Of a stretch of 64,000 nucleotides of DNA, positions 1,041 to 48,952 are shown piece after piece. Both the position numbers and the translations under genes were made by a program. A model generated the notes under the pieces. That model saw only the letters and a list, made by a program, of their open reading frames with translations, searched no databases and was not told where the DNA came from. Numbering within the stretch: the first letter of the stretch is position 1; every line of letters starts with the position of its first letter. The stretch lies in NCBI RefSeq assembly GCF_058153355.1, contig NZ_CM177019.1. One strand, given 5' to 3'.

Positions 1041-1041
1041 T

Positions 1042-2529: not shown

Positions 2530-2678
2530 TATGACTCCTGTTTCACGTGTATCAGATATATGCAGTTTGTGAACGTCAGGGCGCAGAGATCCCCGGGCCG
2601 TATGCCCGTTTATTTCTGGCGACATTCTTTATGGATTGCCGGGCGCATTGCGCTTACCCGGCTTACAGAACAAAAAGA

Positions 2679-3236
2679 TTAAAACGTGGTGGGCGTATGG
2701 GCGCTGATAATTCGGCAAATACCTGCCGACGTATTACTGAAACTGTGCGGGATGCCGGTATTAATGGCATAACTTTGCCCCGCGACGAGGTGGTAATCCT
2801 GACCATTAATCGTCAGAACAATTTCACCTTCCAGTACAGTGCCTATTTCCTCACCCTGATGCTTAATTCTTTCCCCAGTGGTTGTGCCCGGCTGGTAAGT
2901 TTCAAAGATCATCGCCAGCGTGCGATTCGGGTTACCGTTATGAACCAGCTTCATTGACACACCCTGACTGCCCATCTCAATTAAGTCGTCCTGATTAATG
3001 ACGACCTGTGGCTCATCAGGTTTTTCCGGCTCGGAAAAGAATTCCGAGAGTGACAGACCATACACCTTCAGCAGCTTTTGCAGCGTACTGATGGCAGGGC
3101 TGACTTTATCTTGTTCTATCGTACTGATAGCACTGTGAGTCAGCCCGGAGAGTTCGGCGGCACGACGTTGTGAAAGCCCCTGCTGCTGGCGGATTTCCGA
3201 CAAGCGTTTTCCTGGCGCCAGTCCCTCATCACTCAT
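2679..3236 (-). CDS. puuR: HTH/cupin transcriptional repressor of the putrescine utilisation genes
   Basis: 185 aa ORF; N-terminal HTH (RLSEIRQQQGLSQRRAAELSGL) plus C-terminal cupin; synteny. Confidence 0.9.
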   Translation of the reverse strand: MSDEGLAPGKRLSEIRQQQGLSQRRAAELSGLTHSAISTIEQDKVSPAISTLQKLLKVYGLSLSEFFSEPEKPDEPQVVINQDDLIEMGSQGVSMKLVHNGNPNRTLAMIFETYQPGTTTGERIKHQGEEIGTVLEGEIVLTINGQDYHLVAGQSYAINTGIPHSFSNTSAGICRIISAHTPTTF

Positions 3237-3262
3237 ATTTGCATTTCCTTAAACTGTAGTGG

Positions 3263-4027
3263 TCAGAGTCGCTGTTTTTCAGCGATATGGTGCTGACAAG
3301 CGGTGATAAAGCCCTCGAACAATATACGCGAAAGCGCGTATTCGCTACTGTTCCATTCCGGGTGCCACTGTACGCCCAGCGCAAAAGGATGATTGATGAC
3401 GCTAACCGCCTCAACTAAGCCATCCGGCGAGCGGGCTTCAACACGCAACCGTGAGCTAACGACCTTCGCCCCTTGTCCATGCAGAGAGTTTACCCAAAAG
3501 TTGCTACATTCAGGTAACAGTGCAGACAGCAATCCCCCCTCTTCAACCTGAACTTCATGCGACGGTGCATATTGCTGTTCCACCGGCAGTTCGGGATCTT
3601 CCCGATGTTCCAGCAATTCAGGCTGTTCGCACAGCTTGCGATGCAACGAACCACCGGTTGCCACCACCAGTTCCTGTAAACCCCGGCAGATGGCGAAAAT
3701 GGGGATGCGCCTTTCGAGTGCGGCATTAATTAACGCCATGCTCAGAAGATCACGCCCGGGATCGGCGTCAGGCTCATCGCCGTTTTCACCATATAGGTGC
3801 GGCTGCACATTGCTGGGACTACCAGGAAGATAAATACCATCGAGTTTCGGCAAAAGTTGTTCAAGTAATGACGGTTCCGCCAGCGCATGTGGCAGCGCAA
3901 TTGGCAAGCCGCCTGCGTGGATGATGGCATTCAGGTACTTTTCTTGCAGAGTCTGGGTCGCATGACCCTTAAGCCTGTTCCTGCACATTACGACACCGAT
4001 AACCGGATTGTTCATTATATTTTCCAT
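3263..4027 (-). CDS. puuD: gamma-glutamyl-GABA hydrolase (class I glutamine amidotransferase-like)
   Basis: ORF 3263..4039; start taken at MENIMNNPVIGVVM; synteny. Confidence 0.88.
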   Translation of the reverse strand: MENIMNNPVIGVVMCRNRLKGHATQTLQEKYLNAIIHAGGLPIALPHALAEPSLLEQLLPKLDGIYLPGSPSNVQPHLYGENGDEPDADPGRDLLSMALINAALERRIPIFAICRGLQELVVATGGSLHRKLCEQPELLEHREDPELPVEQQYAPSHEVQVEEGGLLSALLPECSNFWVNSLHGQGAKVVSSRLRVEARSPDGLVEAVSVINHPFALGVQWHPEWNSSEYALSRILFEGFITACQHHIAEKQRL

Positions 4028-4039
4028 GCTCAATCTCAC

Positions 4040-4238
4040 AAAGTGGACTAAATTATCGCCATTACTGCGCTTTAAATGACCTTTATGTTCAATATTTTTT
4101 CAATCTAGCAGCGGGTTTTCATTTTTGCAAACTTAATTTAACATTTGACAAACATTTAGTTTGCATACGGATTCGAATGGTGGTCATTATATTTTACGCT
4201 TTGATAACGAGCGGAAAACAAACCAAAGGCGAAGAATC
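4040..4238. promoter_or_regulatory. divergent puuA/puuD promoter region with PuuR-box-like AT-rich element (tggtcattatatttt, about 4178..4192)
   Basis: AT-rich divergent intergenic; element resembles the PuuR recognition motif from memory; not scored. Confidence 0.4.
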
Positions 4239-5657
4239 ATGGAAACCAATATCGTTGAAGTAGAGAACTTTGTTCAGCAGTCAGAAGAGAGGCGGGGTAG
4301 CGCCTTTACGCAGGAAGTGAAACGCTACCTGGAGCGCTACCCGAATACGCAATATGTTGATGTTTTACTTACCGATTTGAATGGTTGTTTTCGTGGAAAA
4401 CGTATTCCTGTTTCAAGCCTGAAGAAGCTCGAGAAAGGGTGTTATTTCCCGGCCTCGGTGTTTGCAATGGATATTCTGGGCAACGTAGTAGAAGAAGCGG
4501 GTCTGGGTCAGGAAATGGGCGAGCCGGATCGTACCTGTGTTCCTGTTCTCGGTTCCTTAACCCCATCTGCCGCCGATCCAGAGTTTATCGGTCAGATGCT
4601 CCTGACCATGGTCGATGAAGATGGCGCTCCCTTTGACGTTGAGCCGCGGAACGTTCTTAACCGCCTGTGGCAGCAGCTGCGCCAGCGCGGATTGTTCCCG
4701 GTTGTAGCGGTAGAGCTGGAGTTCTATTTACTGGATCGCCAGCGCGACGCTGAAGGGTATCTGCAACCGCCCTGCGCGCCCGGCACCGATGACCGCAATA
4801 CACAAAGTCAGGTTTACTCCGTTGATAACCTCAACCACTTCGCCGACGTGCTCAATGATATTGATGAGCTGGCGCAGTTACAGCTGATTCCGGCAGATGG
4901 CGCGGTCGCCGAGGCCTCGCCAGGTCAGTTTGAAATCAATCTTTACCATACCGATAACGTGCTGGAAGCTTGCGATGATGCGCTGGCACTAAAACGCCTG
5001 GTGCGTCTGATGGCAGAAAAGCATAAGATGCACGCCACTTTTATGGCGAAGCCGTATGAAGAGCACGCGGGCAGCGGGATGCATATCCATATCAGTATGC
5101 AAAATAATCGTGGCGAGAACGTGCTTTCTGACGCGGAAGGCGAAGATTCGCCGCTGCTGAAAAAGATGCTCGCCGGGATGATTGACCTGATGCCGTCATC
5201 AATGGCGTTGCTGGCACCAAACGTGAACTCGTATCGCCGCTTCCAGCCGGGGATGTATGTACCGACGCAGGCGTCGTGGGGCCATAACAACCGCACCGTC
5301 GCCCTGCGTATTCCCTGCGGCGATCGCCATAATCACCGCGTGGAATATCGCGTGGCGGGTGCCGATGCCAACCCGTATTTGGTGATGGCAGCGATTTTTG
5401 CTGGTATTTTGCATGGCCTTGATAACGAACTGCCATTACAGGAAGAAGTCGAAGGCAACGGGCTGGAACAGGAAGGCTTACCCTTCCCGATTCGCCAGAG
5501 CGATGCCCTGGGTGAGTTTATCGAGAATGATCACCTGCGCCGCTATTTAGGCGAACGCTTCTGCCATGTCTATCACGCCTGTAAAAATGATGAGCTGTTG
5601 CAGTTTGAGCGCCTCATCACAGAAACAGAAATTGAGTGGATGTTGAAAAACGCGTAA
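4239..5657 (+). CDS. puuA: glutamate-putrescine ligase (glutamine synthetase family)
   Basis: ORF 4161..5657; start at ATG 4239 (METNIVEVENF); 472 aa. Confidence 0.9.
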   Translation: METNIVEVENFVQQSEERRGSAFTQEVKRYLERYPNTQYVDVLLTDLNGCFRGKRIPVSSLKKLEKGCYFPASVFAMDILGNVVEEAGLGQEMGEPDRTCVPVLGSLTPSAADPEFIGQMLLTMVDEDGAPFDVEPRNVLNRLWQQLRQRGLFPVVAVELEFYLLDRQRDAEGYLQPPCAPGTDDRNTQSQVYSVDNLNHFADVLNDIDELAQLQLIPADGAVAEASPGQFEINLYHTDNVLEACDDALALKRLVRLMAEKHKMHATFMAKPYEEHAGSGMHIHISMQNNRGENVLSDAEGEDSPLLKKMLAGMIDLMPSSMALLAPNVNSYRRFQPGMYVPTQASWGHNNRTVALRIPCGDRHNHRVEYRVAGADANPYLVMAAIFAGILHGLDNELPLQEEVEGNGLEQEGLPFPIRQSDALGEFIENDHLRRYLGERFCHVYHACKNDELLQFERLITETEIEWMLKNA

Positions 5658-7724: not shown

Positions 7725-7757
7725 TTATTTCATTGCAGACGCTCGGTCAGTATCGTT

Positions 7758-7788
7758 GCCCGGATAAAGCGTTCACGCCGCATCCGGC
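7758..7788. repeat. REP (repetitive extragenic palindromic) element
   Basis: gcccggataaagcgttcacgccgcatccggc is the reverse complement of the canonical REP consensus. Confidence 0.7.
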
Positions 7789-8036
7789 TAAAAATGACAC
7801 GCACTGCAGCGTGCTTTAATGGGTTTCTCACGATCGTACCGCTCTGCTCCTCGCTAAGTTGTTCTGTGAGTTATAGTTATAGAGAAATCACGGGTACGAA
7901 TGTTGAACAGATGGCGACGTCACCTGTTCAACGACCAACCACACGGCCCTCATTACGACCCCTGAACACAAACGGTAATGGCAAATGTCATTAAATATTA
8001 GTAAGATAGCCTCTTTACATAAAATCCCTTAATATT

Positions 8037-9680
8037 ATGCGCCAGGTATTATCGTCTCTTTTGGTGATTGCTGGACTTGTGAGTGGTCAGGCAATCGCCG
8101 CGCCTGAATCCCCCCCGCATGCTGATATCCGCGACAGCGGTTTTGTCTATTGCGTCAGCGGGCAAGTCAACACCTTTAACCCATCCAAAGCGAGCAGTGG
8201 GTTAATTGTCGATACCCTTGCCGCCCAGTTTTATGATCGACTCCTGGATGTCGATCCCTATACCTATCGCCTGATGCCGGAACTTGCCGAAAGCTGGGAA
8301 GTGCTCGACAACGGCGCGACCTATCGCTTCCACCTGCGTCGCGATGTTCCGTTTCAAAAAACCGACTGGTTTACTCCCACTCGTAAAATGAATGCCGACG
8401 ATGTGGTGTTTACCTTCCAGCGAATTTTTGACCGTAACAACCCGTGGCATAACGTCAACGGCAGCAACTTTCCCTACTTCGACAGCCTGCAATTTGCCGA
8501 TAACGTGAAAAGCGTCCGCAAACTGGATAATCATACCGTTGAGTTCCGACTCGCCCAGCCAGATGCTTCTTTTTTGTGGCACCTGGCGACCCATTATGCA
8601 TCGGTCATGTCGGCAGAATATGCCCAGAAGTTAGAGAAAGAAGATCGCCAGGAACAACTCGACCGTCAGCCGGTCGGCACTGGACCGTATCAGTTATCGG
8701 AATACCGCGCCGGGCAATTTATTCGCCTACAACGTCATGATGACTTCTGGCGCGGCAAACCGTTAATGCCGCAGGTGGTGGTGGATTTAGGCTCCGGCGG
8801 CACCGGACGTCTTTCGAAACTTCTGACAGGTGAATGCGACGTTCTGGCCTGGCCTGCTGCCAGCCAGCTATCTATTTTGCGTGACGATCCGCGCTTGCGT
8901 TTAACGCTGCGTCCGGGGATGAATGTCGCCTATCTGGCATTTAACACCGCCAAACCGCCGCTTAATAATGCCGCCGTGCGCCATGCGCTGGCTCTGGCGA
9001 TCAATAACCAACGCCTGATGCAATCCATCTATTATGGTACGGCTGAAACGGCGGCCTCTATTTTACCGCGCGCCTCGTGGGCCTATGACAACGAGGCTAA
9101 AATTACTGAATACAATCCGGCGAAATCGCGCGAACAGTTGAAGGCGTTAGGGCTGGAAAACTTAACGCTGAAACTTTGGGTGCCCACACGTTCGCAGGCG
9201 TGGAACCCCAGTCCACTGAAAACCGCCGAACTGATTCAGGCGGATATGGCGCAGGTTGGCGTAAAAGTGGTGATTGTGCCGGTAGAAGGTCGTTTTCAGG
9301 AGGCGCGGTTGATGGATATGAGCCATGATCTGACGTTATCCGGTTGGGCGACAGACAGTAACGATCCGGACAGTTTCTTTCGTCCGCTACTGAGCTGCGC
9401 AGCAATACATTCCCAGACCAACCTCGCCCACTGGTGCGATCCGAAATTCGACAGCGTGTTGCGTAAGGCGCTCTCCTCGCAGCAGCTAGCGGCGCGTATT
9501 GAAGCCTATGACGAAGCGCAAAGTATTCTGGCGCAGGAATTGCCCATTTTGCCGCTGGCGTCGTCATTGCGCTTGCAAGCCTACCGTTACGATATCAAAG
9601 GGCTGGTTCTTAGCCCGTTTGGTAACGCCTCCTTTGCTGGTGTGTATCGCGAGAAACAGGATGAGGTGAAAAAACCATGA
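8037..9680 (+). CDS. sapA: periplasmic substrate-binding protein of the Sap ABC transporter
   Basis: 547 aa; signal peptide [21 protein letters not shown]; family 5 SBP; heads sapABCDF. Confidence 0.92.
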
Positions 9681-10642
9681 TTATCTTCACCTTACGCCGC
9701 ATTTTGTTATTGATTGTCACCTTGTTCCTGCTGACGTTCGTTGGCTTTAGCTTGAGCTATTTCACCCCACATGCGCCGTTACAAGGCGCTTCACTGTGGA
9801 ATGCCTGGGTGTTCTGGTTTAACGGCCTGATCCATTGGGATTTTGGTGTTTCCAGCATTAACGGTCAGCCGATTGCCGAACAGTTAAAAGAGGTCTTCCC
9901 GGCGACGATGGAACTGTGCATCCTCGCCTTCGGTTTTGCGCTGATTGTTGGCATCCCCGTAGGAATGATTGCCGGGATTACGCGCCATAAGTGGCAGGAT
10001 AACTTGATCAACGCCATCGCCTTACTGGGCTTTTCAATCCCGGTGTTCTGGCTGGCGCTTCTGTTGACGCTGTTTTGTTCACTCACGCTAGGTTGGTTGC
10101 CCGTTTCAGGGCGTTTCGATCTGCTCTACGAAGTGAAACCGATTACCGGTTTTGCGTTGATTGATGCCTGGCTTTCGGACTCACCGTGGCGGGATGAAAT
10201 GATCATTAGCGCAATCCGTCATATGGTATTGCCCGTGATCACCCTGTCGGTTGCGCCAACAACTGAAGTGATCCGACTAATGCGTATCAGCACTATCGAA
10301 GTGTATGACCAGAATTATGTAAAAGCGGCGGCGACCCGCGGTTTGTCACGCTTTACTATTTTGCGTCGCCACGTTCTGCATAACGCGTTACCTCCGGTTA
10401 TTCCTCGCCTGGGCTTACAATTTTCCACCATGCTGACGCTGGCAATGATCACCGAAATGGTCTTTAGCTGGCCGGGTTTAGGGCGCTGGTTAATTAACGC
10501 CATCCGCCAGCAAGATTACGCGGCCATTTCCGCCGGAGTGATGGTGTGTGGCTCACTGGTCATTATTGTTAACGTGATTTCTGATATTTTGGGTGCCATG
10601 GCTAACCCTCTGAAACATAAGGAATGGTATGCCTTACGATAG
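9677..10642 (+). CDS. sapB: Sap ABC transporter permease
   Basis: 321 aa membrane protein; start overlaps sapA stop. Confidence 0.92.
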
Positions 10643-11519
10643 CGTATACAGCGAAAAGCGCCCGCCGGGCACGCTGCGTACCGCCTGGCGCAAATTTTAT
10701 AGTGATGCCTCTGCGATGGTCGGTCTGTACGGCTGCGCGGGACTGGCTGTACTGTGTATTTTTGGCGGCTGGTTTGCGCCTTACGGAATCGATCAGCAAT
10801 TTCTCGGCTATCAATTATTGCCGCCTTCATGGTCACGCTATGGCGAAGTTTCTTTCTTCCTGGGGACTGACGACCTCGGACGCGATGTTTTAAGTCGTTT
10901 ACTGAGTGGAGCTGCACCAACCGTGGGGGGGGCATTTGTGGTGACGCTTGCAGCGACGATCTGTGGCCTGGTACTTGGCACCTTTGCCGGGTCGACGCAC
11001 GGTCTACGCTCAGCGGTGCTTAACCATATTCTGGATACCTTACTGGCGATCCCTTCCCTACTGCTGGCAATTATCGTTGTAGCGTTTGCCGGACCGAGTT
11101 TGTCGCACGCCATGTTTGCCGTCTGGCTGGCGCTGCTGCCTCGTATGGTACGTTCGATTTACAGCATGGTGCATGACGAACTGGAAAAAGAGTACGTTAT
11201 CGCCGCCCGTCTGGATGGCGCATCAACGCTGAATATTCTCTGGTTTGCTGTGATGCCAAACATCACCGCCGGGCTGGTCACCGAGATCACCCGCGCACTG
11301 TCGATGGCAATTCTCGATATCGCCGCGCTGGGCTTTCTCGATCTCGGCGCACAACTCCCCTCGCCTGAATGGGGAGCGATGCTCGGTGATGCGCTGGAAC
11401 TGATTTATGTCGCCCCGTGGACTGTCATGCTGCCAGGTGCGGCAATTATGATTAGCGTGCTGTTGGTTAACCTCCTTGGCGACGGTGTTCGTCGTGCAAT
11501 TATTGCGGGGGAGGAATAA
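10629..11519 (+). CDS. sapC: Sap ABC transporter permease
   Basis: 296 aa membrane protein; overlaps sapB by 14 nt. Confidence 0.92.
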
Positions 11520-12511
11520 TGCCATTACTCGATATTCGTAACCTGACCATTGAATTTAAAACCGGTGATGAGTGGGTTAAAGCCGTCGACCGCGTAAGTA
11601 TGACCTTAACCGAAGGTGAAATCCGCGGTCTTGTTGGCGAATCCGGTTCCGGCAAAAGTTTGATTGCAAAAGCAATTTGTGGGGTGAATAAAGATAACTG
11701 GCGTGTTACTGCTGACCGTATGCGTTTTGATGATATCGATTTGCTGCGTCTCTCCGCACGCGAACGGCGCAAGCTGGTTGGTCACAACGTGTCGATGATT
11801 TTCCAGGAACCGCAGTCGTGTCTTGACCCTTCAGAACGTGTGGGTCGCCAGTTGATGCAAAACATCCCAGCCTGGACCTATAAAGGCCGTTGGTGGCAGC
11901 GTTTTGGCTGGCGCAAACGCCGTGCCATTGAACTACTGCACCGTGTGGGGATTAAAGATCACAAAGATGCGATGCGCAGTTTTCCCTATGAGTTGACCGA
12001 AGGTGAATGTCAGAAAGTGATGATAGCCATTGCACTGGCGAATCAACCGCGTCTGCTGATTGCTGACGAACCGACAAACTCAATGGAGCCAACAACCCAG
12101 GCGCAAATTTTTCGCCTGTTGACGCGTCTCAACCAAAACAGCAATACCACTATTTTGCTTATCAGCCATGACTTACAAATGCTTAGCCAATGGGCGGATA
12201 AAATTAACGTGCTTTACTGCGGTCAAACGGTGGAAACCGCGCCAAGCAAGGAGTTGGTGACAATGCCACATCATCCTTATACCCAGGCGCTGATCCGCGC
12301 GATACCAGACTTCGGCAGCGCGATGCCGCATAAAAGTCGCCTCAATACGCTGCCCGGCGCTATCCCACTGCTGGAACAGTTACCGATTGGGTGTCGTCTG
12401 GGGCCGCGTTGCCCGTATGCACAACGAGAATGCATTGTGACGCCACGTTTGACGGGGGCGAAAAATCATCTCTATGCCTGTCATTTCCCGCTGAACATGG
12501 AGAAAGAGTGA
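11519..12511 (+). CDS. sapD: Sap ABC transporter ATP-binding protein
   Basis: 330 aa; Walker A GESGSGKS; start overlaps sapC stop. Confidence 0.92.
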
Positions 12512-12512
12512 G

Positions 12513-13319
12513 ATGATCGAAACGCTGCTTGAAGTGCGTAATTTAAGTAAAACGTTCCGCTACCGGACCGGCTGGTTTCGTCGTCAGACCGTAGAAGCGG
12601 TAAAACCCTTGAGCTTTACGCTACGTGAAGGCCAGACACTGGCGATCATTGGCGAGAATGGTTCTGGTAAATCCACGCTGGCAAAAATGCTGGCGGGAAT
12701 GATAGAACCTACCAGCGGCGAGTTATTGATTGACGATCATCCGCTGCATTTTGGCGATTATTCCTTCCGCAGTCAGCGTATTCGCATGATTTTTCAGGAT
12801 CCTTCGACCTCGTTAAATCCCCGTCAACGTATCTCGCAAATTCTGGATTTTCCACTGCGTCTGAACACCGATCTGGAACCTGAACAGCGTCGCAAACAGA
12901 TTATTGAAACGATGCGTATGGTTGGGCTGCTACCGGATCACGTCAGTTACTATCCGCATATGTTGGCACCCGGGCAAAAACAGCGTCTGGGGCTGGCGCG
13001 CGCGCTGATATTGCGCCCAAAAGTCATTATTGCCGATGAAGCCCTCGCCTCACTGGATATGTCGATGCGTTCGCAGTTGATTAATCTGATGCTGGAATTA
13101 CAGGAAAAACAGGGCATTTCGTATATTTATGTTACCCAGCATATCGGAATGATGAAGCACATTAGCGACCAGGTGCTGGTGATGCATCAGGGAGAGGTTG
13201 TCGAGCGAGGTAGTACTGCGGATGTGCTCGCCTCTCCGCTGCACGACCTCACTAAACGACTGATTGCCGGTCATTTTGGCGAGGCATTGACGGCGGATGC
13301 GTGGCGTAAGGACCGTTAG
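12513..13319 (+). CDS. sapF: Sap ABC transporter ATP-binding protein
   Basis: 268 aa; Walker A GENGSGKST. Confidence 0.92.
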   Translation: MIETLLEVRNLSKTFRYRTGWFRRQTVEAVKPLSFTLREGQTLAIIGENGSGKSTLAKMLAGMIEPTSGELLIDDHPLHFGDYSFRSQRIRMIFQDPSTSLNPRQRISQILDFPLRLNTDLEPEQRRKQIIETMRMVGLLPDHVSYYPHMLAPGQKQRLGLARALILRPKVIIADEALASLDMSMRSQLINLMLELQEKQGISYIYVTQHIGMMKHISDQVLVMHQGEVVERGSTADVLASPLHDLTKRLIAGHFGEALTADAWRKDR

Positions 13320-13326
13320 TGTTTTG

Positions 13327-13365
13327 CACCTCATCCTGACAGGCCCCCCCCCTCAGGATGAGGTG
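13327..13365. terminator. bidirectional intrinsic terminator hairpin between sapF and the convergent MFS gene
   Basis: 13 bp arms cacctcatcctga / tcaggatgaggtg around a C-run loop. Confidence 0.7.
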
Positions 13366-13369
13366 TTCA

Positions 13370-14533
13370 TTACTTTTGATTGTCGATTCTGGTGAGAGCA
13401 ACCAGCAATGCCAGCGTATAACACACCGTAATTGCCAGACTCATTTTTAACAGTGTTTCTCCGCCAATTCCCGACAATGGCGCGGCTATACCGCCGAAGA
13501 CAAACATGCTCATCCCCATCAACGCAGACGCCGTTCCAGATTCCTGCGTCCCTACTGCACTCATAGCCTCTGCCCCGCCAACAGTGCCGATGCCGCTACA
13601 AAATGCGATGGTGAAAAATAATGCCACCAGTGCCGGAATGGGCAATTGTACCCATGCGCATAAGACCGTGAGCAATGCACACAAAATTGCCGCTATCAGG
13701 CCACCTCGCAACAATGTCATCGCGTTAATCCGTCGCGCCAGGCGCGAGAAGATCCATGAAGCAATGATAAGTCCGATGCCGTTAAGGCCAAACACCAGGC
13801 TAAATTGCATTGGACTAAAGCCAAATTCCTTCTGCAACACGAACGACGAAGAGCCGATATACGCAAACAAACCGGCCAGCATAAAACTTTGAATCAGGCA
13901 AAAGCGCATAAAAAGGCGGTTCTGCACCACGCTTCGTCCGGTTAATAGCAATGATGAGCCCCTTTTATTTTCTGGCAAGGTCTCATTAATAAATAACAGG
14001 CAGCCCAGCAACAGTACGGTGCTAATTTCAGCCATTACCCAGAATAAAGTGCGCCAGTCAAAAGTGCTAACAATGTACCCGCCCAGCACTGGCGACAACA
14101 CCGGTGCCAGGCCATTCACCGTCATTAACAGCGCAAAAAACTGGGTCAACGTTACTCCCTGATATTTGTCACGAGCAATAGAACGAGAGAGCACCGAACC
14201 ACCCGCCCCCGCGATCCCTTGAATAAAACGCCAGACCACCAGCCAGTAAATATTGTTCGTTGTCGCGCACAAAATGGAAGAAACAATAAACAATAGCAAC
14301 GACAAGATTAACGGACGTTTACGCCCTATTTTGTCGCTCAGAGGGCCAAATAACAGTTGTCCGACGCCAAGACCGATCAGTGATGCAGTCAGGGTTAATT
14401 GCGTTATGGTCGTGGTTGCCGCCAGTTGCTCAGACATCTCCGGCAAAGCCGGCAAATAAAGATCGGTACACATCGGGCCGATACCGGCTAAAAGACCAAG
14501 AATCAATGCCCATGAAAGAGAGACTCTAGCCAT
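13370..14533 (-). CDS. MFS drug:H+ antiporter, DHA1 (Bcr/CflA-like) family
   Basis: 387 aa, about 12 hydrophobic segments; MFS signature GPLSDKIGRKRP; starts 9 bp after the OMF stop. Confidence 0.8.
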   Translation of the reverse strand: MARVSLSWALILGLLAGIGPMCTDLYLPALPEMSEQLAATTTITQLTLTASLIGLGVGQLLFGPLSDKIGRKRPLILSLLLFIVSSILCATTNNIYWLVVWRFIQGIAGAGGSVLSRSIARDKYQGVTLTQFFALLMTVNGLAPVLSPVLGGYIVSTFDWRTLFWVMAEISTVLLLGCLLFINETLPENKRGSSLLLTGRSVVQNRLFMRFCLIQSFMLAGLFAYIGSSSFVLQKEFGFSPMQFSLVFGLNGIGLIIASWIFSRLARRINAMTLLRGGLIAAILCALLTVLCAWVQLPIPALVALFFTIAFCSGIGTVGGAEAMSAVGTQESGTASALMGMSMFVFGGIAAPLSGIGGETLLKMSLAITVCYTLALLVALTRIDNQK

Positions 14534-14541
14534 ATTATTCC

Positions 14542-15915
14542 TTACTTGAGTGATGACATGCCGCCGCCCAGCGACTGCCAGAGCGTGATTCGGTTTGTAA
14601 AATCAGTCAGTTGCAGTGCCAGCAGCTCCTGCTGTGCGCTCCACAAGCTGCGCTGCGCCGTCAACACGGTCAGGTAATCACCAACACCCGCCTGATAGCG
14701 ACGCAAGCCAACATCGACCGTTTGTTGCTCAGCTTTAACATACTGGCGCTGTGCATCCAGTTGCTCTTCAAGCGTGGTCCGCCGCGCCAGTGCGTTAGCG
14801 ACATCTTTAAATGCGCTCTGAACGGTTTTTTCATAGGTGGCAATGAGCCCACGCTTTTGTGCTTCTGCGTAACGAAGCTGCGCCAGATTACTTCCGCCAG
14901 TGAACAGCGGTAATGTGACCGATGGTGCAAATGACCAGATCTGCATTCCGTGGCTGAACAACGACGACAATGCGTCACTGCCCACACCGGCACTGGCAGT
15001 CAGCGAAATCGTCGGGAAAAAGTTAGCCCGCGCCGCGCCAATATCTGCATTGGCGCTCTTCAAATTATGTTCCGCTTCCTGGATATCCGGGCGACGCAGC
15101 AGAACATCAGATGATACTCCCGCAGGAACCAGACTTATCATTTGTTCCGGCAGGCTTTCCAGTGTTCCCGGTAGCAGATTTTCCGCAAGCGTTGTACCTG
15201 CCAGTAAGTTCAGCGCATTTTTATCCTGCATCACTTGTGTCTGATAGCTGGCAACGCTGGCGCGCGCTTGCTGATAAACACTCATCGCCTCACTGACATC
15301 TGTCGCTGCCGCCGTGCCAACCTGTTGCTGGCGCTGGATAATTTTCAATGAGTTTTCTGCACTGGCCATCGTTTCTTTTGCCAGGGCCAGGTTGCTGTTA
15401 TCGGCCGCCAGTGTCAGCCAGGCGGTGCTGATTTCAGCAATCAGCGTTAAACGAGTGTTCTGGGCTGTAAATTCACTGGCAAGCCAGGTTTCCCGCGCCG
15501 CCCGAGATAAACTCTGATTACGACCAAACAGATCTAACGTATAACTGGACACCGTGCCGTCAGCCTCGGCAGTTGTTCCCGTACCATTCGCCAGCGAACG
15601 ACTGCGAGTCGAACTTAAGGCCGCATTCACCGTCGGAAATAACGACGCATTAGTTTGCCCATAGAGCGCCCGTGCTGAGTCAATATCAGCAATCGCTTTT
15701 TGCACATCGCGGTTACTGTTCAGTGCAATGGTTACTACCTGCTGCAATCGGGGATCGTGAATCACCTGCTGCCAGTCATGGCTGATTGCCTTCCCCTGGC
15801 CCTGTGCTCCCGGCAAGGTCGCCGGGATTGGGGATTCAGGCGTACTGTAGTGAGGATCGAGCGAGACACATCCCGCACTCAACAACACCAGAAAAATAAG
15901 AGAACGACGCAACAT
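14542..15915 (-). CDS. outer-membrane efflux lipoprotein, NodT/OprM family
   Basis: 457 aa; lipoprotein signal MLRRSLIFLVLLSAGC; OMF-like repeats; 4 bp after the RND stop. Confidence 0.85.
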   Translation of the reverse strand: MLRRSLIFLVLLSAGCVSLDPHYSTPESPIPATLPGAQGQGKAISHDWQQVIHDPRLQQVVTIALNSNRDVQKAIADIDSARALYGQTNASLFPTVNAALSSTRSRSLANGTGTTAEADGTVSSYTLDLFGRNQSLSRAARETWLASEFTAQNTRLTLIAEISTAWLTLAADNSNLALAKETMASAENSLKIIQRQQQVGTAAATDVSEAMSVYQQARASVASYQTQVMQDKNALNLLAGTTLAENLLPGTLESLPEQMISLVPAGVSSDVLLRRPDIQEAEHNLKSANADIGAARANFFPTISLTASAGVGSDALSSLFSHGMQIWSFAPSVTLPLFTGGSNLAQLRYAEAQKRGLIATYEKTVQSAFKDVANALARRTTLEEQLDAQRQYVKAEQQTVDVGLRRYQAGVGDYLTVLTAQRSLWSAQQELLALQLTDFTNRITLWQSLGGGMSSLK

Positions 15916-15918
15916 AAC

Positions 15919-18900
15919 TTACTCCTGACGGCGCGGTTTACCGGCAAACAAACGTTTCACCAGTACAAAAAACAGAGGAACGAAGAAAATGGCCAGTAAT
16001 GTAGCGGTCAGCGTGCCGCCAATAATGCCCGTACCAATGGCGATGCGGCTGTTCGCCCCTGCACCGGTTGCTATCGCCAGCGGCATTACCCCCGCAATAA
16101 ACGCCAGCGAGGTCATGATGATTGGGCGTAAACGAGTCTGCGCCGCGCGTAATGCCGCACGACTCAAGGAATAACCCTCTGCAACCGCCGCTTCAGCAAA
16201 TTCCACAATCAGAATGGCGTTTTTCGACGACAAGCCGATAGTAGTTAATAGCGCTACCTGGAAGTAAACGTCGTTGTTTAAATCACGCATCCAGGCCGCC
16301 AGCGCCGCGCCAAGAAGCCCCAGAGGGATCACCAGAATGACCGAGAACGGGACTGACCAGCTTTCGTACAGTGCTGCAAGGCAGAGGAAAACCACCAGAA
16401 TAGAAACTGCATACAGACTTAATGCCTGACCGCTCGCCAGTTTCTCCTGCAATGACAAACCACTCCAGGCCCAGGTTGTTCCCGCAGGAAGACTGTTTGC
16501 CAGTTCCTCCATTTTTGTCATTGCATCGCCGGAACTAAAGCCAGTCGCGTTTTCGCCCTGAATTTCATAGGCTGCCGAGCCGTTGTAGCGCACCAGTCTT
16601 TCCGGTCCATACTGCCAGCGGGTGGTCGCAAAAGCAGAGAATGGTGTCATGGCGTTATCGCTACCGCGCACAAACCATTTACCTAAGTCTGACGGCGCAG
16701 AACGAAATTCGCTGTCGCCCTGAATGTAGACTTTTTTCACACGACCACGGTCAATAAAGTCATTCACATAAGTACCGCCCCACGCACTGGACAGGGTGTC
16801 GGTGACATCATTCAAACTCAACCCTAATGACACCGCTTTATTGCTATCAATATCTACCTGCAATTGCGGCATTTGTGGCAAATCATTGGCGCGTACAGAA
16901 TGTAACTCCGGACTTTGATTCGCTTTTTCTATCAACTGATTACGCATTTGCAGCAGTGTTTCACGATCGGTTCCACCGTTAGCTAACAATTCAAACGTAA
17001 AACCATTGCTTTGGCCCAGCCCATCAACGGCTGGCGGCGTCATCGCAAATACCGTCGCATCACGAATTGTGCCCAGCTCTTTGGTAGCCCGTAGGGCGAT
17101 AGCCTGGGCGGTGTTTTCTGCCCCTTTACGTTGAGACCAGTTTTTCAACGAAACAAACGCCATCCCGGTGTTCTGTCCGCTGCCGCTAAAACTGAAACCA
17201 TCAACGGTAAAAATGACATCGGTATTTGCTTTCTCGTTAATCAGGAACCAGTCAACAATCTGGCGATTCACTTCTGCTGTACGGGCAGCGGTCGCCCCGG
17301 CCGGCAGCGTGTACTGCACCATGATTTCGCCCTGGTCTTCAGTGGGTAAGAAACTGCCCGGCAGTTTCCACATCATCAGGGCCATTCCACCACCCAGCAC
17401 GACATAAAGCCCCATCGTTCGGGCTGCACGGCGCAGGACATAAATTACGCCTCGCTGATATTTATCTTCAGTACGGCGGTAAAAGCGGTTAAATGCGCCG
17501 AAAAAGCCTTTTTTATGTGGCGGAACATGCTGGAGGACGGAACCGCACAGGGCGGGAGTCAAGGTCAATGCCACCACCACGGAAAGCAGCATTGCGGAGA
17601 TGATGGTGATGGAGAACTGACGATAAATTACGCCCGTAGATCCCCCAAAGAAGGCCATCGGCAGGAATACGGCTGACAACACCAGCGCAATGGCAACCAG
17701 TGCGCCAGAAATCTCGCCCATTGATTTTTCCGTGGCTTCACGCGCGGGCAACCCTTCGTCACGCATAATGCGTTCGACGTTCTCCACCACCACAATGGCA
17801 TCGTCCACCAGCAAGCCGATCGCCAGCACCATTGCAAACAACGTCAGGGTATTAATCGAATAGCCAAACAACGCAAGAACGCCGAATGTGCCCAGCCAAA
17901 CGACGGGGACAGCTAACGCCGGAATCAGTGTGGCACGCAGGTTTTGCAGGAATAAATACATCACGCAAACCACCAATACGATGGCTTCAAACAGCGTCTG
18001 AATTACGTCCTCTACGGAGATTTTAATAAATTCAGTGCTGTCTTTCGGGTATGCGATGTCGTATCCCTGCGGCATGTTCCGCTGGAATTCGGCAATCTTA
18101 TCCTTGACCAGCGTCGCCGTATTCAGCGCATTCGCACCGGGCGAAAGCATTACAGCAACCCCGGCAGACGGGTGACCGTTAAGTTTGCCGATAGCGGTAT
18201 AATCTTCACTGCCCATCTCAACGCGAGCCACATCTTTTATACGAACAACTGCGCCGTCTGACTGGCTTTTCACGATAATATTTTTGAACTGATCCACCGT
18301 CTGCAAGCGAGACTGCGCACGTACCGTTGCGGTCAGTTGCTGAGTATCCGGTGAAGGCAATGCCCCTATTTTCCCGGCAGTAACCTGCACGTTTTGCGCT
18401 TCAATAGCACTTTGCACGTCTGAAGGCATCAGCGAGTAAGACGCCAGTTTGGCCGGGTCGAGCCAGATGCGCATAGCGTATTCCGCGCCAAAGACTTGCA
18501 GACTCCCCACACCTTCAACACGCGCCAGGGGGTCCTGAACGTTACTGACCAGCCAGTCGGCGATATCCGAACTGGAGGCTTTGTCAGTGGTGTCATACAC
18601 GGCAGCAATCAGCAAAAAGTTGCTTTGTGATTTCTCCACCGTAACACCCGTTTGCTGCACTTCGCTGGGTAGGCGCGACTCCGCCTGCTGAATTTTATTC
18701 TGCACCTGAACCTGTGCAGTATCTGGATCGGTACCTTGTTCAAAGGTCACATTAATACTGACCGAACCATCAGAGCTACTGGTTGAGCTGAAATAGAGTA
18801 AATTATCAAGCCCAGTGAGTTGTTGCTCGATAACCTGAGTCACGCTGTTCTCCAGCGTTTCGGCAGAAGCACCAGTATAAGTGGCTGAAATTTTAATGGT

Positions 18901-19026
18901 CGGCGGTGCAACGTCAGGATATTGCGCGACGGGTAATGTGCGAATAGCCAGAATCCCCGCCAACATAATCAAAATGGCGATAACCCAGGCAAAGACCGGG
19001 CGGCGAACAAAAAAGCGCGAAAACAT
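15919..19026 (-). CDS. RND multidrug efflux permease, HAE1 (AcrB/MexB-like) family
   Basis: 1035 aa; N-terminus MFSRFFVRRPVFAWVIAILIML typical of AcrB-type pumps; 12-TM with two large periplasmic loops. Confidence 0.9.
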   Translation of the reverse strand: MFSRFFVRRPVFAWVIAILIMLAGILAIRTLPVAQYPDVAPPTIKISATYTGASAETLENSVTQVIEQQLTGLDNLLYFSSTSSSDGSVSINVTFEQGTDPDTAQVQVQNKIQQAESRLPSEVQQTGVTVEKSQSNFLLIAAVYDTTDKASSSDIADWLVSNVQDPLARVEGVGSLQVFGAEYAMRIWLDPAKLASYSLMPSDVQSAIEAQNVQVTAGKIGALPSPDTQQLTATVRAQSRLQTVDQFKNIIVKSQSDGAVVRIKDVARVEMGSEDYTAIGKLNGHPSAGVAVMLSPGANALNTATLVKDKIAEFQRNMPQGYDIAYPKDSTEFIKISVEDVIQTLFEAIVLVVCVMYLFLQNLRATLIPALAVPVVWLGTFGVLALFGYSINTLTLFAMVLAIGLLVDDAIVVVENVERIMRDEGLPAREATEKSMGEISGALVAIALVLSAVFLPMAFFGGSTGVIYRQFSITIISAMLLSVVVALTLTPALCGSVLQHVPPHKKGFFGAFNRFYRRTEDKYQRGVIYVLRRAARTMGLYVVLGGGMALMMWKLPGSFLPTEDQGEIMVQYTLPAGATAARTAEVNRQIVDWFLINEKANTDVIFTVDGFSFSGSGQNTGMAFVSLKNWSQRKGAENTAQAIALRATKELGTIRDATVFAMTPPAVDGLGQSNGFTFELLANGGTDRETLLQMRNQLIEKANQSPELHSVRANDLPQMPQLQVDIDSNKAVSLGLSLNDVTDTLSSAWGGTYVNDFIDRGRVKKVYIQGDSEFRSAPSDLGKWFVRGSDNAMTPFSAFATTRWQYGPERLVRYNGSAAYEIQGENATGFSSGDAMTKMEELANSLPAGTTWAWSGLSLQEKLASGQALSLYAVSILVVFLCLAALYESWSVPFSVILVIPLGLLGAALAAWMRDLNNDVYFQVALLTTIGLSSKNAILIVEFAEAAVAEGYSLSRAALRAAQTRLRPIIMTSLAFIAGVMPLAIATGAGANSRIAIGTGIIGGTLTATLLAIFFVPLFFVLVKRLFAGKPRRQE

Positions 19027-20147
19027 CAGGCATTGCCTCCATTAGCCTGAACTTCAACAGCCTTGACGGTCTGCCCTGAAGTGACTTTGGCAGAACCTTC
19101 AACAATCAGTCGGTCGCCGTTGTGCAGGCCGTTCAGCACCAGCCATTTATCACCATACGTTTCTCCCGTTTCGAGCGTTCGCTGCTCTACTTTATTGTCT
19201 TTATTCACCACCAGCGCAGTTGCATTGCCTTTAGCATCGCGCGTAACGCCCTGTTGAGGCGCGAGAATAGCGTTTTCCATCACGCCTTCATCGACACGAG
19301 CGCGAACAAACATTCCCGGTAATAACTGCTGTTGTGGATTGGGGAAAATTGCCCGTAATGTCACCGAACCGGTAGACTCATCCACCGCGACTTCGGTGAG
19401 TTCCAGACGCCCTTTTTCGCTGTAGGTTGTGCCATCTTCCAGAATAAGTGAGACGCTCATGGTGTCACTGTTGGTCGCCAGTGACTGTTTACGCAGACGT
19501 AATAAATCGACACTGGAGCGAGTGAGGTCGACATACATTGTATCCAGACCACGAATAGTCGTTAACGCTGTATCCTGCGACGCGGTCACCAGTGCGCCAG
19601 GGGTTACCGACGAAATACCAATACGCCCCGAAATCGGTGCGGTTACCGTGGTCCAGTCAAGATTAATGCGCGCAGTTTCCAGTGCGGCTTTTTTCGCCTC
19701 TACACTGGCTTTATCTTGTGCACAGGTAGACTGAGCATCATCAGCATCCTGTTGTGAAACACCATTCTCTTTCACCAGTCGGGCATAACGCTGCGCTTTC
19801 TGGCAATCGGCTTTTACCAGTGCCTGTGCTTGTTGTAATGCTGCCCGGGCTTCATTCCATGCAGCCTGATAACTGGCCGCATCAATCTGGTAGAGAGGCT
19901 GTCCAGCCTTGACCAGATCACCTTCCTTAAATAAGCGTTTCTGGATAATTCCCCCAACTTGCGGACGTACTTCAGCACTGAGCGCAGCACTGGTGCGTCC
20001 GGTTAATTCACTGACTACCGAAACCGGTTGAGATTTGAGCGTAACAACGCCGACTTCTGTTTCTGACGGGGATGAATTGTTACTTTGCGTATTATCACAA
20101 CCCGATAAGAGCAGCATTGCCACTACAGATGTTGCTATATACTTCAT
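19026..20147 (-). CDS. RND periplasmic adaptor (membrane fusion protein) lipoprotein
   Basis: ORF 19026..20180; start at MKYIATSVVAMLLLSGC (lipobox); stop overlaps the RND start. Confidence 0.85.
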   Translation of the reverse strand: MKYIATSVVAMLLLSGCDNTQSNNSSPSETEVGVVTLKSQPVSVVSELTGRTSAALSAEVRPQVGGIIQKRLFKEGDLVKAGQPLYQIDAASYQAAWNEARAALQQAQALVKADCQKAQRYARLVKENGVSQQDADDAQSTCAQDKASVEAKKAALETARINLDWTTVTAPISGRIGISSVTPGALVTASQDTALTTIRGLDTMYVDLTRSSVDLLRLRKQSLATNSDTMSVSLILEDGTTYSEKGRLELTEVAVDESTGSVTLRAIFPNPQQQLLPGMFVRARVDEGVMENAILAPQQGVTRDAKGNATALVVNKDNKVEQRTLETGETYGDKWLVLNGLHNGDRLIVEGSAKVTSGQTVKAVEVQANGGNA

Positions 20148-20231
20148 TATTTTCTCCAGGGTGAGAAATACCCTCCTCATTGAAATTAATGAGGATATGT
20201 CAGGGATATTCAGTTATAACGAACCCGCATC

Positions 20232-20247
20232 GCGAAATGAATTTCGC
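20232..20247. promoter_or_regulatory. 7-2-7 inverted repeat gcgaaat-ga-atttcgc upstream of the adaptor gene; candidate TetR operator
   Basis: Read directly; lies between the tetR terminator hairpin and the adaptor start. Confidence 0.45.
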
Positions 20248-20257
20248 AATGAAATAA

Positions 20258-20275
20258 GGGGGATTAATATCCCCC
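20258..20275. terminator. hairpin gggggat-taat-atccccc, T-rich on the minus strand; candidate tetR terminator
   Basis: Perfect 7 bp stem about 20 bp after the tetR stop (minus strand). Confidence 0.5.
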
Positions 20276-20295
20276 GCTATTGGTTAATTCTGTTC

Positions 20296-20862
20296 TTATT
20301 TATTTATCAACATACTAACAATATCCTGATATATTTCCTGCAGATGTTGTGGATCGCTTTTTTGCGGTGTTAAACGACGATAAACCGTACCTTCCATCAT
20401 GGTAGCAAACACTTCAACGCAGCAATGAATGTGATCGTCGCTAAGATGGGGATGCATTCTTTTCATATGTGCACAACCGTTAGCGAACATTCTGGCGTCA
20501 GCTTCTTCAAGCATTGCCATAACCCGCGGGTTGCGTGTGGCTTCTGCAGCCACTTCCAGCATCAGCGCGTCGTCGTCCTCATTTAAGGATTTACGCAAGG
20601 CAAGGACTTCCGGGAAGTGATCGGTACGCGCGTCAATGTCCATTTGGGCAATACGAAAGTCGATGATACGGCGAACCATCTCTTCAATAATGGCGTCTTT
20701 GTTGGCGAAGTAACGATATATCTGACCCACGCTAAGCTGAGCTTCGCTGGCAATTTGCGACATACTGGCGGCATGAAATCCGCAGCGACGAAAACACCGA
20801 CGGGCGGCGTTAATGATTTCATCCTGACGCTGTTTGTGGCGTATCTCCAGCTTGCTGGTCAT
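20296..20862 (-). CDS. TetR/AcrR-family transcriptional regulator
   Basis: ORF 20296..20961; start at MTSKLEI with AGGAG 7 nt upstream; HTH region AARRCFRRCGFHAASMSQIASEAQLSVGQIYRYF. Confidence 0.8.
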   Translation of the reverse strand: MTSKLEIRHKQRQDEIINAARRCFRRCGFHAASMSQIASEAQLSVGQIYRYFANKDAIIEEMVRRIIDFRIAQMDIDARTDHFPEVLALRKSLNEDDDALMLEVAAEATRNPRVMAMLEEADARMFANGCAHMKRMHPHLSDDHIHCCVEVFATMMEGTVYRRLTPQKSDPQHLQEIYQDIVSMLINK

Positions 20863-20887
20863 TTCTGTCTCCTGGCCTATCACTTGG

Positions 20888-20905
20888 TGAGAATGATCAT
20901 TCTCA
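20888..20905. promoter_or_regulatory. 18 bp perfect palindrome tgagaatgatcattctca, 26 bp upstream of the tetR start; candidate autoregulatory operator
   Basis: Read directly on the sequence. Confidence 0.4.
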
Positions 20906-21339
20906 TTTTTGCTAATTATACGTTTCTCCAAAGTAATGGAAAGTATTTTTATCTTATTCATGGTGCATATTCTGATAATGAAGAGATTGTGGAGATTCTG
21001 TGAAGATAGTTGACAATATTAAGTTGGGGTCAATTCATCAGAAAGGCAGCGACTTGTTGTCGCCAGTTCTGTTTTCATCATCAAACTTATCGGAGCTAAT
21101 ACGAATAGTTTCATAGTCAGATTCTATAAGATATTTCCCCAACCTACCCCTTGCAGGCGTCAAGAGTAGATAACGCAAAATGCTCTGTACCGCAGCTTCT
21201 CTCCGGTACAGAAAGCGCAACTATAGCCACCCACAGCCAGGTTGATTATAATAACCGTTTATCTGTTCGTACTGTTTACTAAAACGACGAATCGCCTGAT
21301 TTTCAGGCACAACAAGCATCAACAATAAGGATTAAAGCT

Positions 21340-22128
21340 ATGGGTTTTCTTTCCGGTAAGCGCATTCTGGTAACCGGTGTTGCCAGCAAACTGTCCATCG
21401 CCTACGGTATCGCTCAGGCGATGCACCGCGAAGGAGCTGAACTGGCATTCACCTACCAGAACGACAAACTGAAAGGCCGCGTAGAAGAATTTGCCGCTCA
21501 ATTGGGTTCTGACATCGTTCTGCAGTGCGATGTTGCAGAAGATGCCAGCATCGACACCATGTTCGCTGAACTGGGTAAAGTTTGGCCGAAATTTGACGGC
21601 TTTGTACATTCCATTGGTTTTGCACCGGGCGATCAGCTGGATGGTGACTATGTTAACGCCGTTACTCGTGAAGGCTTCAAAATTGCCCACGACATCAGCT
21701 CCTACAGCTTCGTTGCAATGGCAAAAGCTTGCCGCTCCATGCTGAATCCGGGCTCTGCCCTGCTGACCCTTTCCTACCTTGGCGCTGAGCGCGCTATCCC
21801 GAACTACAACGTTATGGGTCTGGCAAAAGCGTCTCTGGAAGCGAACGTGCGCTATATGGCGAACGCGATGGGTCCGGAAGGTGTGCGTGTTAACGCCATC
21901 TCTGCTGGTCCGATCCGTACTCTGGCGGCTTCCGGTATCAAAGACTTCCGCAAAATGCTGGCTCATTGCGAAGCCGTTACCCCGATTCGCCGTACCGTTA
22001 CTATTGAAGATGTGGGTAACTCTGCGGCATTCCTGTGCTCCGATCTCTCTGCCGGTATCTCCGGTGAAGTGGTCCACGTTGACGGCGGTTTCAGCATCGC
22101 TGCAATGAACGAACTCGAACTGAAATAA
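21340..22128 (+). CDS. fabI: enoyl-ACP reductase (NADH), SDR family
   Basis: 262 aa; [29 protein letters not shown]-terminus; ends AAMNELELK. Confidence 0.95.
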
Positions 22129-22180
22129 TTTGACGGCGGTTTCAGCATCGCTGCAATGAACGAACTCGAACTGAAATAAT
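22079..22180. repeat. perfect tandem direct repeat, 2 x 51 bp, duplicating the last 16 codons plus stop of fabI
   Basis: 22079..22129 and 22130..22180 are identical base for base. Confidence 0.9.
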
Positions 22181-22195
22181 CGTTCTGTTGGTCAA

Positions 22196-22222
22196 GATGG
22201 GCGGCGTTCTGCCGCCCATCAT
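22196..22222 (+). terminator. hairpin gatgggcggc-gttct-gccgcccatc downstream of fabI
   Basis: 10 bp perfect stem; trailing T-run is weak. Confidence 0.5.
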
Positions 22223-22322
22223 CTCTGTTATACCTTTCTGATATTTGTTATCGCCGATCCGTCTTTCTCCCCTTCCCGCCTTGCGTCAGGATAACGATTT
22301 CCTTTACGACCAAGGAGCGCCC

Positions 22323-23450
22323 ATGGAACAACGCCACATCACCGGCAAAAGCCACTGGTATCATGAAACACAATCCAGTACTGCGGAGAATGACGTTCTG
22401 CCTCTGGTCCCGGAAGCCGCAAAGGTTCGCGATCCCTTTCTGCTCGACGTGATCCTTGATGAAGAAACGCTGGCCCCCTTCCTTTCATGGATGGTCCCGG
22501 CGCGCATTCTTGCAGCGGAGTTGTTCCCTGACCAGCTTACTGTGACCCGTTCACAGACCTTCACCGCTTATGAACGCTTGTCGACGGCCCTGACGGTTGC
22601 TCAGGTTTGCGGCGTCCAGCGGTTATGTAACTACTATTCGGCGCGACTTACGCCGCTCCCCGGGCCTGATTCCTCCAGGGAAAGTAATCATCGGTTGGCA
22701 CAAATCACGCAATATGCCCGCCAACTGGCCAGCTCGCCTTCTATTATCGACAACCGATCGCGCCAACATCTGAATGACGTCGGTCTTACTGCCTGGGACT
22801 GTGTGATAATCAACCAAATAATTGGTTTTATTGGCTTTCAGGCGCGGACAATTGCCACATTTCAGGCTTATCTCGGGCATTCGGTACGCTGGTTACCCGG
22901 TCTGGAGATACAAAACTACGCCGACGCGTCACTGTTTGCTGATGAATCAATACGCTGGCGAAGCAGCTATGAGGTGGAAAAACTACCTGAAGAGCACACA
23001 AAAAGTTCTAATGCAGAACTTTGCCAACTGACCGAAACACTCTCTCTCCACCCTATTTCACTTTCCCTTCTCGAAAAGTTGTTAAACAGCACACGGGTCA
23101 ATACACAGCCGGATAATAAGCTTGCGGCGTTGTTATGCGCGCGTATTAATGGCAGTCCTGCTTGTTTTGCCGCCTGTATGAATTCATCAAATGAATATAA
23201 AAAAATCAGCCCCCTTCTGCGCAAGGGCGAAAATGAAATTAACCAATGGGCTGACCGTGATTCTGTTGAGCGCGCTACCGTTCAGGCGATACAATGGCTG
23301 ACCCGAGCACCCGATCGCTTTAGCGCCGCCCAGTTCAGCCCATTACTCGAACACGAAAAATCATCAACGCAGATTATTAATCTGCTGGTATGGAGCGGGC
23401 TGTGTGGCTGGATAAATCGCTTAAAAATCGCGTTGGGTGAGACATATTAA
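22323..23450 (+). CDS. yciW: conserved protein of unknown function (putative oxidoreductase)
   Basis: ORF 22245..23450; start at [12 protein letters not shown] gives 375 aa; synteny between fabI and rnb. Confidence 0.8.
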
Positions 23451-25493: not shown

Positions 25494-25686
25494 TCCCCGC
25501 TCCACCTTCGCCATATCCCGGCAGATTTTTAACTGACTTTCGTTTGAAAACTGGCGTTTTTCCAAAACTGGATTACAAATAAATAGATAAAAAAAACAAT
25601 GCGTTTAGCCGCCGTTAATTTCATGTAAGTCATGTTGTTCCTTTTATTTAACCGCGGACTCCGCTGTTAACCGGAGGATATGCATC

Positions 25687-36596: not shown

Positions 36597-36736
36597 AGCT
36601 CCTCCTTAATGACAGGGTTGCGAAGCCCTGATTCTCTTCAGGGTGAATATTAAAGATAACACAAACATTGCGTAACGATTTGATAACAACCCAAATTGAT
36701 AAAAGAGGAGAAACCTTGTGGCAAAGCAAATGAAAA

Positions 36737-36752
36737 CCCCGCCGCAGCGGGG
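36737..36752 (-). terminator. hairpin ccccgc-cgca-gcgggg followed by T-run on the minus strand
   Basis: Sits 8 bp downstream of the 26-codon minus-strand ORF. Confidence 0.5.
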
Positions 36753-36759
36753 TCAGGGA

Positions 36760-36840
36760 TCAGTGAGTAATGATCCAGAGGAGTTCGGCCCAGAAGAGCA
36801 TCGACAGAGAAAATGCGCCCATCCAGGACCAATATTTCAT
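36760..36840 (-). CDS. candidate 26 aa hydrophobic small protein (MKYWSWMGAFSLSMLFWAELLWIITH)
   Basis: ATG to TGA, single TM-like peptide, followed by a terminator hairpin; too short for the ORF track. Confidence 0.3.
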   Translation of the reverse strand: MKYWSWMGAFSLSMLFWAELLWIITH

Positions 36841-36968
36841 ATTTGTGTTGATCATAGGCTACACCCTTAACGGTTATTACTTTGTGTTGAGATAACTCAA
36901 CCTGTTATTGCTGCGGTGTATTAAAAGCCCTTTAATTCATTAAAAATGGGTAATAAGAATGATGATAA

Positions 36969-47102: not shown

Positions 47103-47202
47103 AGAGCTTCCTTTTGGTGTCGCCTTCCCAGGCGTCGAACAGGAGAATCAATGGCGCAGTAGAGCGCCATTTTAAGGCCGCGTAGTATACAGAGTTAAGC
47201 AC

Positions 47203-48837: not shown

Positions 48838-48882
48838 ATGAAAGCGATTTTCGTACTGAAAGGTTGGTGGCGCACTTCCTGA
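48838..48882 (+). CDS. trpL: trp operon leader peptide with tandem Trp codons
   Basis: Encodes [14 protein letters not shown] then stop. Confidence 0.95.
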
Positions 48883-48924
48883 AACGGGCAGTGTATTCAC
48901 CATGCGTAAAGCAACCAGATACCC

Positions 48925-48952
48925 AGCCCGCCTAATGAGCGGGCTTTTTTTT
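48925..48952 (+). terminator. trp attenuator (3:4 terminator hairpin plus U-tract)
   Basis: agcccgc-ctaatga-gcgggct followed by tttttttt. Confidence 0.92.

Follow-up and report, generated by a model that had tools for sequence, protein, structure and literature searches.

A 51-bp tandem duplication across the fabI stop codon in a rarely sampled clone of Escherichia coli

Why should an essential gene appear to end twice? In a 64,000-nucleotide stretch of contig NZ_CM177019.1 (assembly GCF_058153355.1), referred to here as the window, the final codons of fabI are followed at once by a second copy of themselves. The locus corresponds to the sapF-fabI-yciW-rnb region of E. coli. The initial annotation, made from the letters alone, had described the repeat and proposed that it was very recent, an assembly artefact or maintained by some process, and that it might affect the 3′ structure or stability of the fabI mRNA. 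We asked whether the second copy is real, how widely it occurs, how it may have arisen and whether it is likely to matter for the gene.

Tandem Repeats Finder returned a single, perfect array at 22079-22180 (period 51, 2.0 copies, 100% matches, 0 indels), in which 22079-22129 equals 22130-22180, so the exact and immediate 2 × 51 bp repeat reported earlier is borne out. The copies lie head to tail without a spacer, according to both Tandem Repeats Finder and an exhaustive scan of periods 6-3000, and copy number varies among strains, as expected of a tandem duplication. In the exhaustive scan, it was the sole perfect tandem duplication of any period in 64 kb, and the only 31-mers present twice in the window are the 21 contained within the 51-bp unit. 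The chance of adjacent 51-nt identity is approximately 4^-51 (~2e-31) per position; the repeat is therefore the product of a true copying event. It cannot be extended in either direction, as position 22078 is g and 22129 is t, while 22181 is c and 22130 is t.

Copy 1 (22079..22129, plus strand) opens with 2 nt of the codon for Val247 and continues through 15 codons and the TAA stop to 1 nt of the 3′ untranslated region (UTR). The unit had been described as the last 16 codons of fabI plus TAA; it does span the stop codon, but it is shifted by +1 nt and includes only 15 full codons. Copy 1 is the ancestral, translated copy. Copy 2 (22130..22180, plus strand) is untranslated. Because 51 equals 17 × 3, it lies in frame with fabI and features a second TAA at 22177-22179, and readthrough of the first stop codon into copy 2 would append 16 residues to FabI. 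Relative to other E. coli, the only new sequence is the junction between 22129 and 22130 (…GAAATAAT/TTGACGG…, 22104..22155, plus strand), which has no breakpoint microhomology. In an alignment with strain N96, a clean 51-bp gap in the relative lies opposite the duplicated segment.

The ORF list places an intact fabI, encoding a 262-aa enoyl-ACP reductase, at 21340..22128 on the plus strand, with the TAA stop at 22126-22128; all matching E. coli records give the same fabI annotation. The protein is identical to the WP_000506490.1-type FabI of relatives. FabI is thus unaltered by the duplication, and copy 1 terminates translation normally. A putative intrinsic terminator of fabI was identified by consensus scan at 22196..22230 on the plus strand. 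It features a hairpin at 22196-22220 with an 11-bp stem (8 G-C pairs) and a 3-nt loop, followed by a T-rich tail; this G+C-rich stem-loop and its tail, ATCTCTGTTA, located 3′ of the stop, are a consensus match only, with a weak T-tract. The ORF list and the consensus scan thus agree with the earlier description, in which the first copy ends fabI, the second is a noncoding ghost and a terminator hairpin lies just 3′. The hairpin sequence is unchanged by the duplication. What changes is its distance from the stop codon, as 67 nt separate the stop from the terminator stem with the duplication, compared with 16 nt in the single-copy arrangement. The downstream gene, yciW, maps at 22323..23450 on the plus strand. 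At 194 bp, the fabI-yciW spacer is exactly 51 bp longer than the 143 bp of K-12 and of all other strains examined.

Folding with ViennaRNA predicted two RNA hairpins on the plus strand, at ~22130-22156 and ~22157-22194. In the ancestral gene, the same two predicted hairpins lie inside the translated region or straddle its end; with the duplication, both are predicted to occur additionally as untranslated 3′ UTR. The suggested effect of the repeat on 3′ mRNA structure found no support at the terminator, where the mean pairing probability of the stem was 0.94 both with and without the extra copy and the minimum free energy structures keep the stem intact. Rfam 15 covariance models gave no gathering-level match near 22079-22180. 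At permissive E-values, only sub-threshold, chance-level Rfam 15 matches were found at the repeat. A known structured RNA or small RNA within the repeat was considered and rejected on this negative scan. The sole gathering-level matches in the window are the STnc180 small RNA (36726-36928, minus strand) and the trp operon leader (48859-48952, plus strand), both ordinary for the region.

The duplication is private to a single, seldom sampled clone of E. coli. Among 5,426 complete E. coli genomes, a 51-nt query with the junction at its centre had 0 matches. A 141-nt query over the repeat served as the positive control and matched 5,421 records, and the matches listed all span 90 bp, 51 short of the query; longer queries across the repeat gave the same single-copy result among the matches listed. 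Comparison with other E. coli fabI 3′ ends therefore finds a single copy in the matches listed among 5,421. A 26-nt junction pattern was found in none of 100,044 species-representative (GTDB) genomes and in none of 241 M metagenome records. The idea that the repeat might be a known quirk of reference strains does not survive, since K-12 has the single-copy 143-bp spacer, and the suggestion that it is maintained by something receives no support, as no other genome examined carries it. The closest complete genomes are only ~99.4% identical to the window, so the strain itself is not among them. The 143-bp spacer is shared by all of the ~20 listed places in which YciW, RNase II or LapB matches that of the window exactly; in flanking DNA they diverge from the window by 0.4-0.7%. 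We found no literature on a fabI 3′ duplication or on the accession numbers.

Carriers were located by exact-protein look-ups with the RND permease and RNase II of the window; the LapB variant was too common (341 blocks). The exact RND permease occurs on only three public contigs. GCA_043012465.1 (a TPA assembly; contig DAXYJU010000008.1) carries the duplication and differs from the window over 23 kb by 0 mismatches and 2 homopolymer indels. These are located at 13344-13352, with C9 in the window and C8 in the assembly, and at 25589-25596, with A8 and A7, respectively; Logan contigs of run SRR31441161 match the window at both homopolymers. GCA_015332025.1 (contig AAXEGZ010000010.1), found via RNase II, also carries the duplication and agrees with the window at 100% identity over 21,935 bp. 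The carriers are thus GCA_015332025.1, GCA_043012465.1 and at least one Logan run (SRR31441161), possibly one isolate sequenced repeatedly. The permease variant of the window is itself private to the strain, with one TPA protein record (HFG3507994.1) in addition to Logan contigs. In GCA_015332025.1, the RND permease (locus 2399-5508) is absent from the gene table even though the DNA is 100% identical to the window, in which the ORF is intact; this looks like an indexing or annotation gap rather than a sequence difference. Elsewhere in the window, the rluB-yciO interval (47137-47202) measures 66 bp; in the close relative Z0117EC0005, it measures ~2.1 kb and holds a frameshifted yciQ (DUF2207), and yciQ is intact in K-12. 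On this comparison, yciQ appears to have been deleted in the clone.

Logan uses k = 31, and by construction its contigs hold every 31-mer once (PMC12424806). As each 31-mer can appear only once and the unit is present twice, a genome with the duplication forces Logan contigs to break k-1 = 30 nt inside the ends of the unit. The left contig of SRR31441161 corresponds to 7761-22108 of the window and ends in …CACG/TTGACGGCGGTTTCAGCATCGCTGCAATGA, 30 nt into the unit. From this left contig, we predicted a right contig that begins with the last 30 nt of the unit; the right contig was then found to start at 22151 (CTGCAATGAACGAACTCGAACTGAAATAAT/CGTTCTG…), which is nucleotide 22 of the unit and 30 nt before its end. 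Both contigs match the window at 100% identity. Logan contigs from four runs of single-copy strains pass unbroken through the fabI-yciW spacer. At its other end, the left contig (SRR31441161_202) stops at 7761 within a REP-like palindromic element (GCCCGGATAAAGCGTTCACGCCGCATCCGGC, 7745-7790) identified by eye, as expected for a repeat of the genome. From the Logan breaks it follows that the reads contain the 51-mer in two contexts, and the two NCBI assemblies supply the tandem order; taken together, they refute an artefact. The 51-bp duplication is real DNA, and the assembly-artefact option raised in the initial annotation can be set aside, given the two assemblies that carry the repeat and the Logan assembly that breaks at 30 nt.

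It is worth stating how closely the repeat resembles a product of assembly. The overlap of two contigs at k = 51 may be joined untrimmed, or a copy may be introduced by polishing or gap closing, leaving one copy in the true genome. An untrimmed de Bruijn overlap would yield a perfect tandem repeat of odd length with a blunt junction, as seen here: 51 is odd and falls among the usual k values of de Bruijn assemblers, the junction lacks microhomology, and the repeat is unique among thousands of genomes. Nevertheless, this origin is very improbable, because the repeat is present in two separately deposited assemblies whose contigs differ in size and orientation, and is visible in the reads through the k = 31 breaks at both of its ends, and because single-copy strains yield unbroken Logan contigs. 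Moreover, serial untrimmed joins would leave further scars, but no second 51-bp duplication occurs in 64 kb, and base quality is high, with only 1-5-bp indels relative to relatives. The same blunt junction would also suit illegitimate joining of imported DNA, such as the neighbouring efflux island together with fabI, and the repeat could in principle be a footprint of mobility, such as an att or target-site remnant at the fabI 3′ end. The 7.9-kb accessory RND/MFS efflux island directly upstream of fabI lends this some appeal. However, the copies abut with nothing, and hence no element DNA, in between, ~2,037 genomes have the same island without the duplication, and the density of mismatches to the left and right of the junction shows no discontinuity across ~30 relatives. 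Furthermore, no E. coli-type mobile fabI stops at the breakpoints. Transposon target-site duplications are far shorter than 51 bp. We therefore regard mobility or import as highly unlikely. A plasmid-borne source of fabI was also rejected, as the plasmid matches are mislabelled multi-Mb chromosomes or large chromosomal fragments without the duplication, and true plasmid-borne fabI genes, from Klebsiella and Salmonella plasmids, are only 83-86% identical. For instance, the PLSDB records NZ_CP134663.1, NZ_CP141089.1 and NZ_OL790696.1, of 4.8-4.9 Mb, are chromosomes filed as plasmids. The efflux island itself (13319-21217, 7.9 kb) encodes an MFS transporter, an outer-membrane factor, a 1035-aa RND permease, an adaptor and a TetR regulator. 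It sits between sapF and fabI, where it takes the place of the ycjD (DUF559) segment found in K-12 and N96, and is present in ~2,037 of 5,426 complete E. coli genomes.

A different view is that the duplication is a functional or adaptive change. By moving the terminator out of the ribosome shadow and adding two untranslated hairpins, it might raise terminator efficiency and/or fabI mRNA stability, with a changed FabI dosage (and triclosan tolerance) or insulation of yciW from read-through as the outcome. Li et al. (2016) found that the efficiency of the tR2 terminator is strongly repressed near a stop codon in a sequence-dependent manner (~0.12 at 17 bp and ~0.8 at 18 bp), and that terminator efficiency levels off beyond 30 bp from the stop (PMC4824070). 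Spacing is the very parameter changed by the fabI duplication, and the shift from 16 nt to 67 nt leads from the sensitive range to the plateau of these measurements; they were obtained, however, with tR2 on reporter plasmids (PMC4824070), while the fabI terminator is known by prediction only. The 3′ UTR also acquires the two predicted hairpins, and at least two deposited datasets of the clone include the variant. Against this, the thermodynamic fold of the terminator is unchanged, the terminator is a consensus-scan prediction with a weak T-tract, and the failure of the duplication to recur in other lineages among >5,400 genomes speaks against a change that is generally selectable. We thus consider an adaptive 3′-UTR change unlikely. 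The specific proposal of a natural spacer mutation, in which the inserted 51 nt would raise termination and/or fabI mRNA stability and alter FabI dosage or read-through into yciW, is likewise improbable, although by analogy with tR2 a modest gain in termination efficiency or mRNA stability is conceivable. Most likely, the duplication is selectively neutral.

The evidence as a whole makes it very probable that this is a real 51-bp tandem duplication left by a one-off, recent copying error in the ancestor of the clone, and most likely neutral. On this reading, the 51-bp segment was doubled by a single error of replication or repair copying that made no use of microhomology. In the resulting sequence, 51 extra untranslated nucleotides lie between the stop codon and an unchanged terminator hairpin, and the duplication would since have been inherited clonally, most likely under selective neutrality. 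A 51-bp direct repeat would be expected to be prone to RecA-independent loss of one copy, an expectation that fits both a young age and restriction to one clone. The proposal that the duplication is very recent holds in a relative sense, as it is private to a clone whose nearest single-copy relatives are 0.4-0.7% removed, but the identity of the copies is in itself no proof. After separation from the closest single-copy relative, the 102 bp of the array should have gathered only ~0.3 substitutions; perfect identity is therefore unremarkable and sets only a loose upper bound on age.

How the copying error occurred is less easily read from the breakpoints. At both of them (22078/22129 and 22181/22130), 0 bp of microhomology were found, which is atypical for simple replication slippage, and classic slipped mispairing offers no obvious explanation of the origin of the repeat. 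Microhomology-mediated slippage was considered and rejected, since slippage on the CGTT…CGTT pair close by would give a unit of 53 bp rather than 51 bp. Perfect tandem duplications with a period of at least 15 were absent from ~340 kb of other finished E. coli sequence, a small sample that shows rarity only.

Among the major recognised classes of diversity in E. coli are small variable segments, minisatellites included (PMC2884548). The fabI repeat resembles a bacterial minisatellite or VNTR in having no spacer, a unit of tens of bp, one or two copies depending on the strain, and a location at a gene end or in an intergenic region; it differs in being limited to two copies and one clone, and in being neither a known typing locus nor part of an observed copy-number series (PMC2884548). 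In E. coli, tandem direct repeats of ~100 bp are deleted by RecA-independent template switching (PMC7145654). The 101-bp tetA repeats of the pSTL plasmids used in that work are, like the fabI repeat, perfect direct repeats in the ~50-100 bp range expected to collapse, whereas the fabI repeat is natural and chromosomal and formed without flanking microhomology (PMC7145654).

The duplication is thus another case of a well-known kind of variation, a clone-private, two-copy repeat of minisatellite type in the fabI 3′ UTR. Its biological weight is small, as the triclosan target FabI is unaltered and only one rarely sampled clone has the variant. The analysis does show that an apparent k-mer-sized duplication can be checked without reads, by asking whether an independent fixed-k assembly (Logan, k = 31) breaks k-1 inside both ends. 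The junction sequence, found in none of >5,400 complete genomes, the GTDB representatives or 241 M metagenome records, can serve as an exact marker of the clone. The repeat is also a clean natural example of a tandem duplication arising without microhomology, and it provides a natural test case for the relation between stop-to-terminator spacing and the expression of an essential gene.
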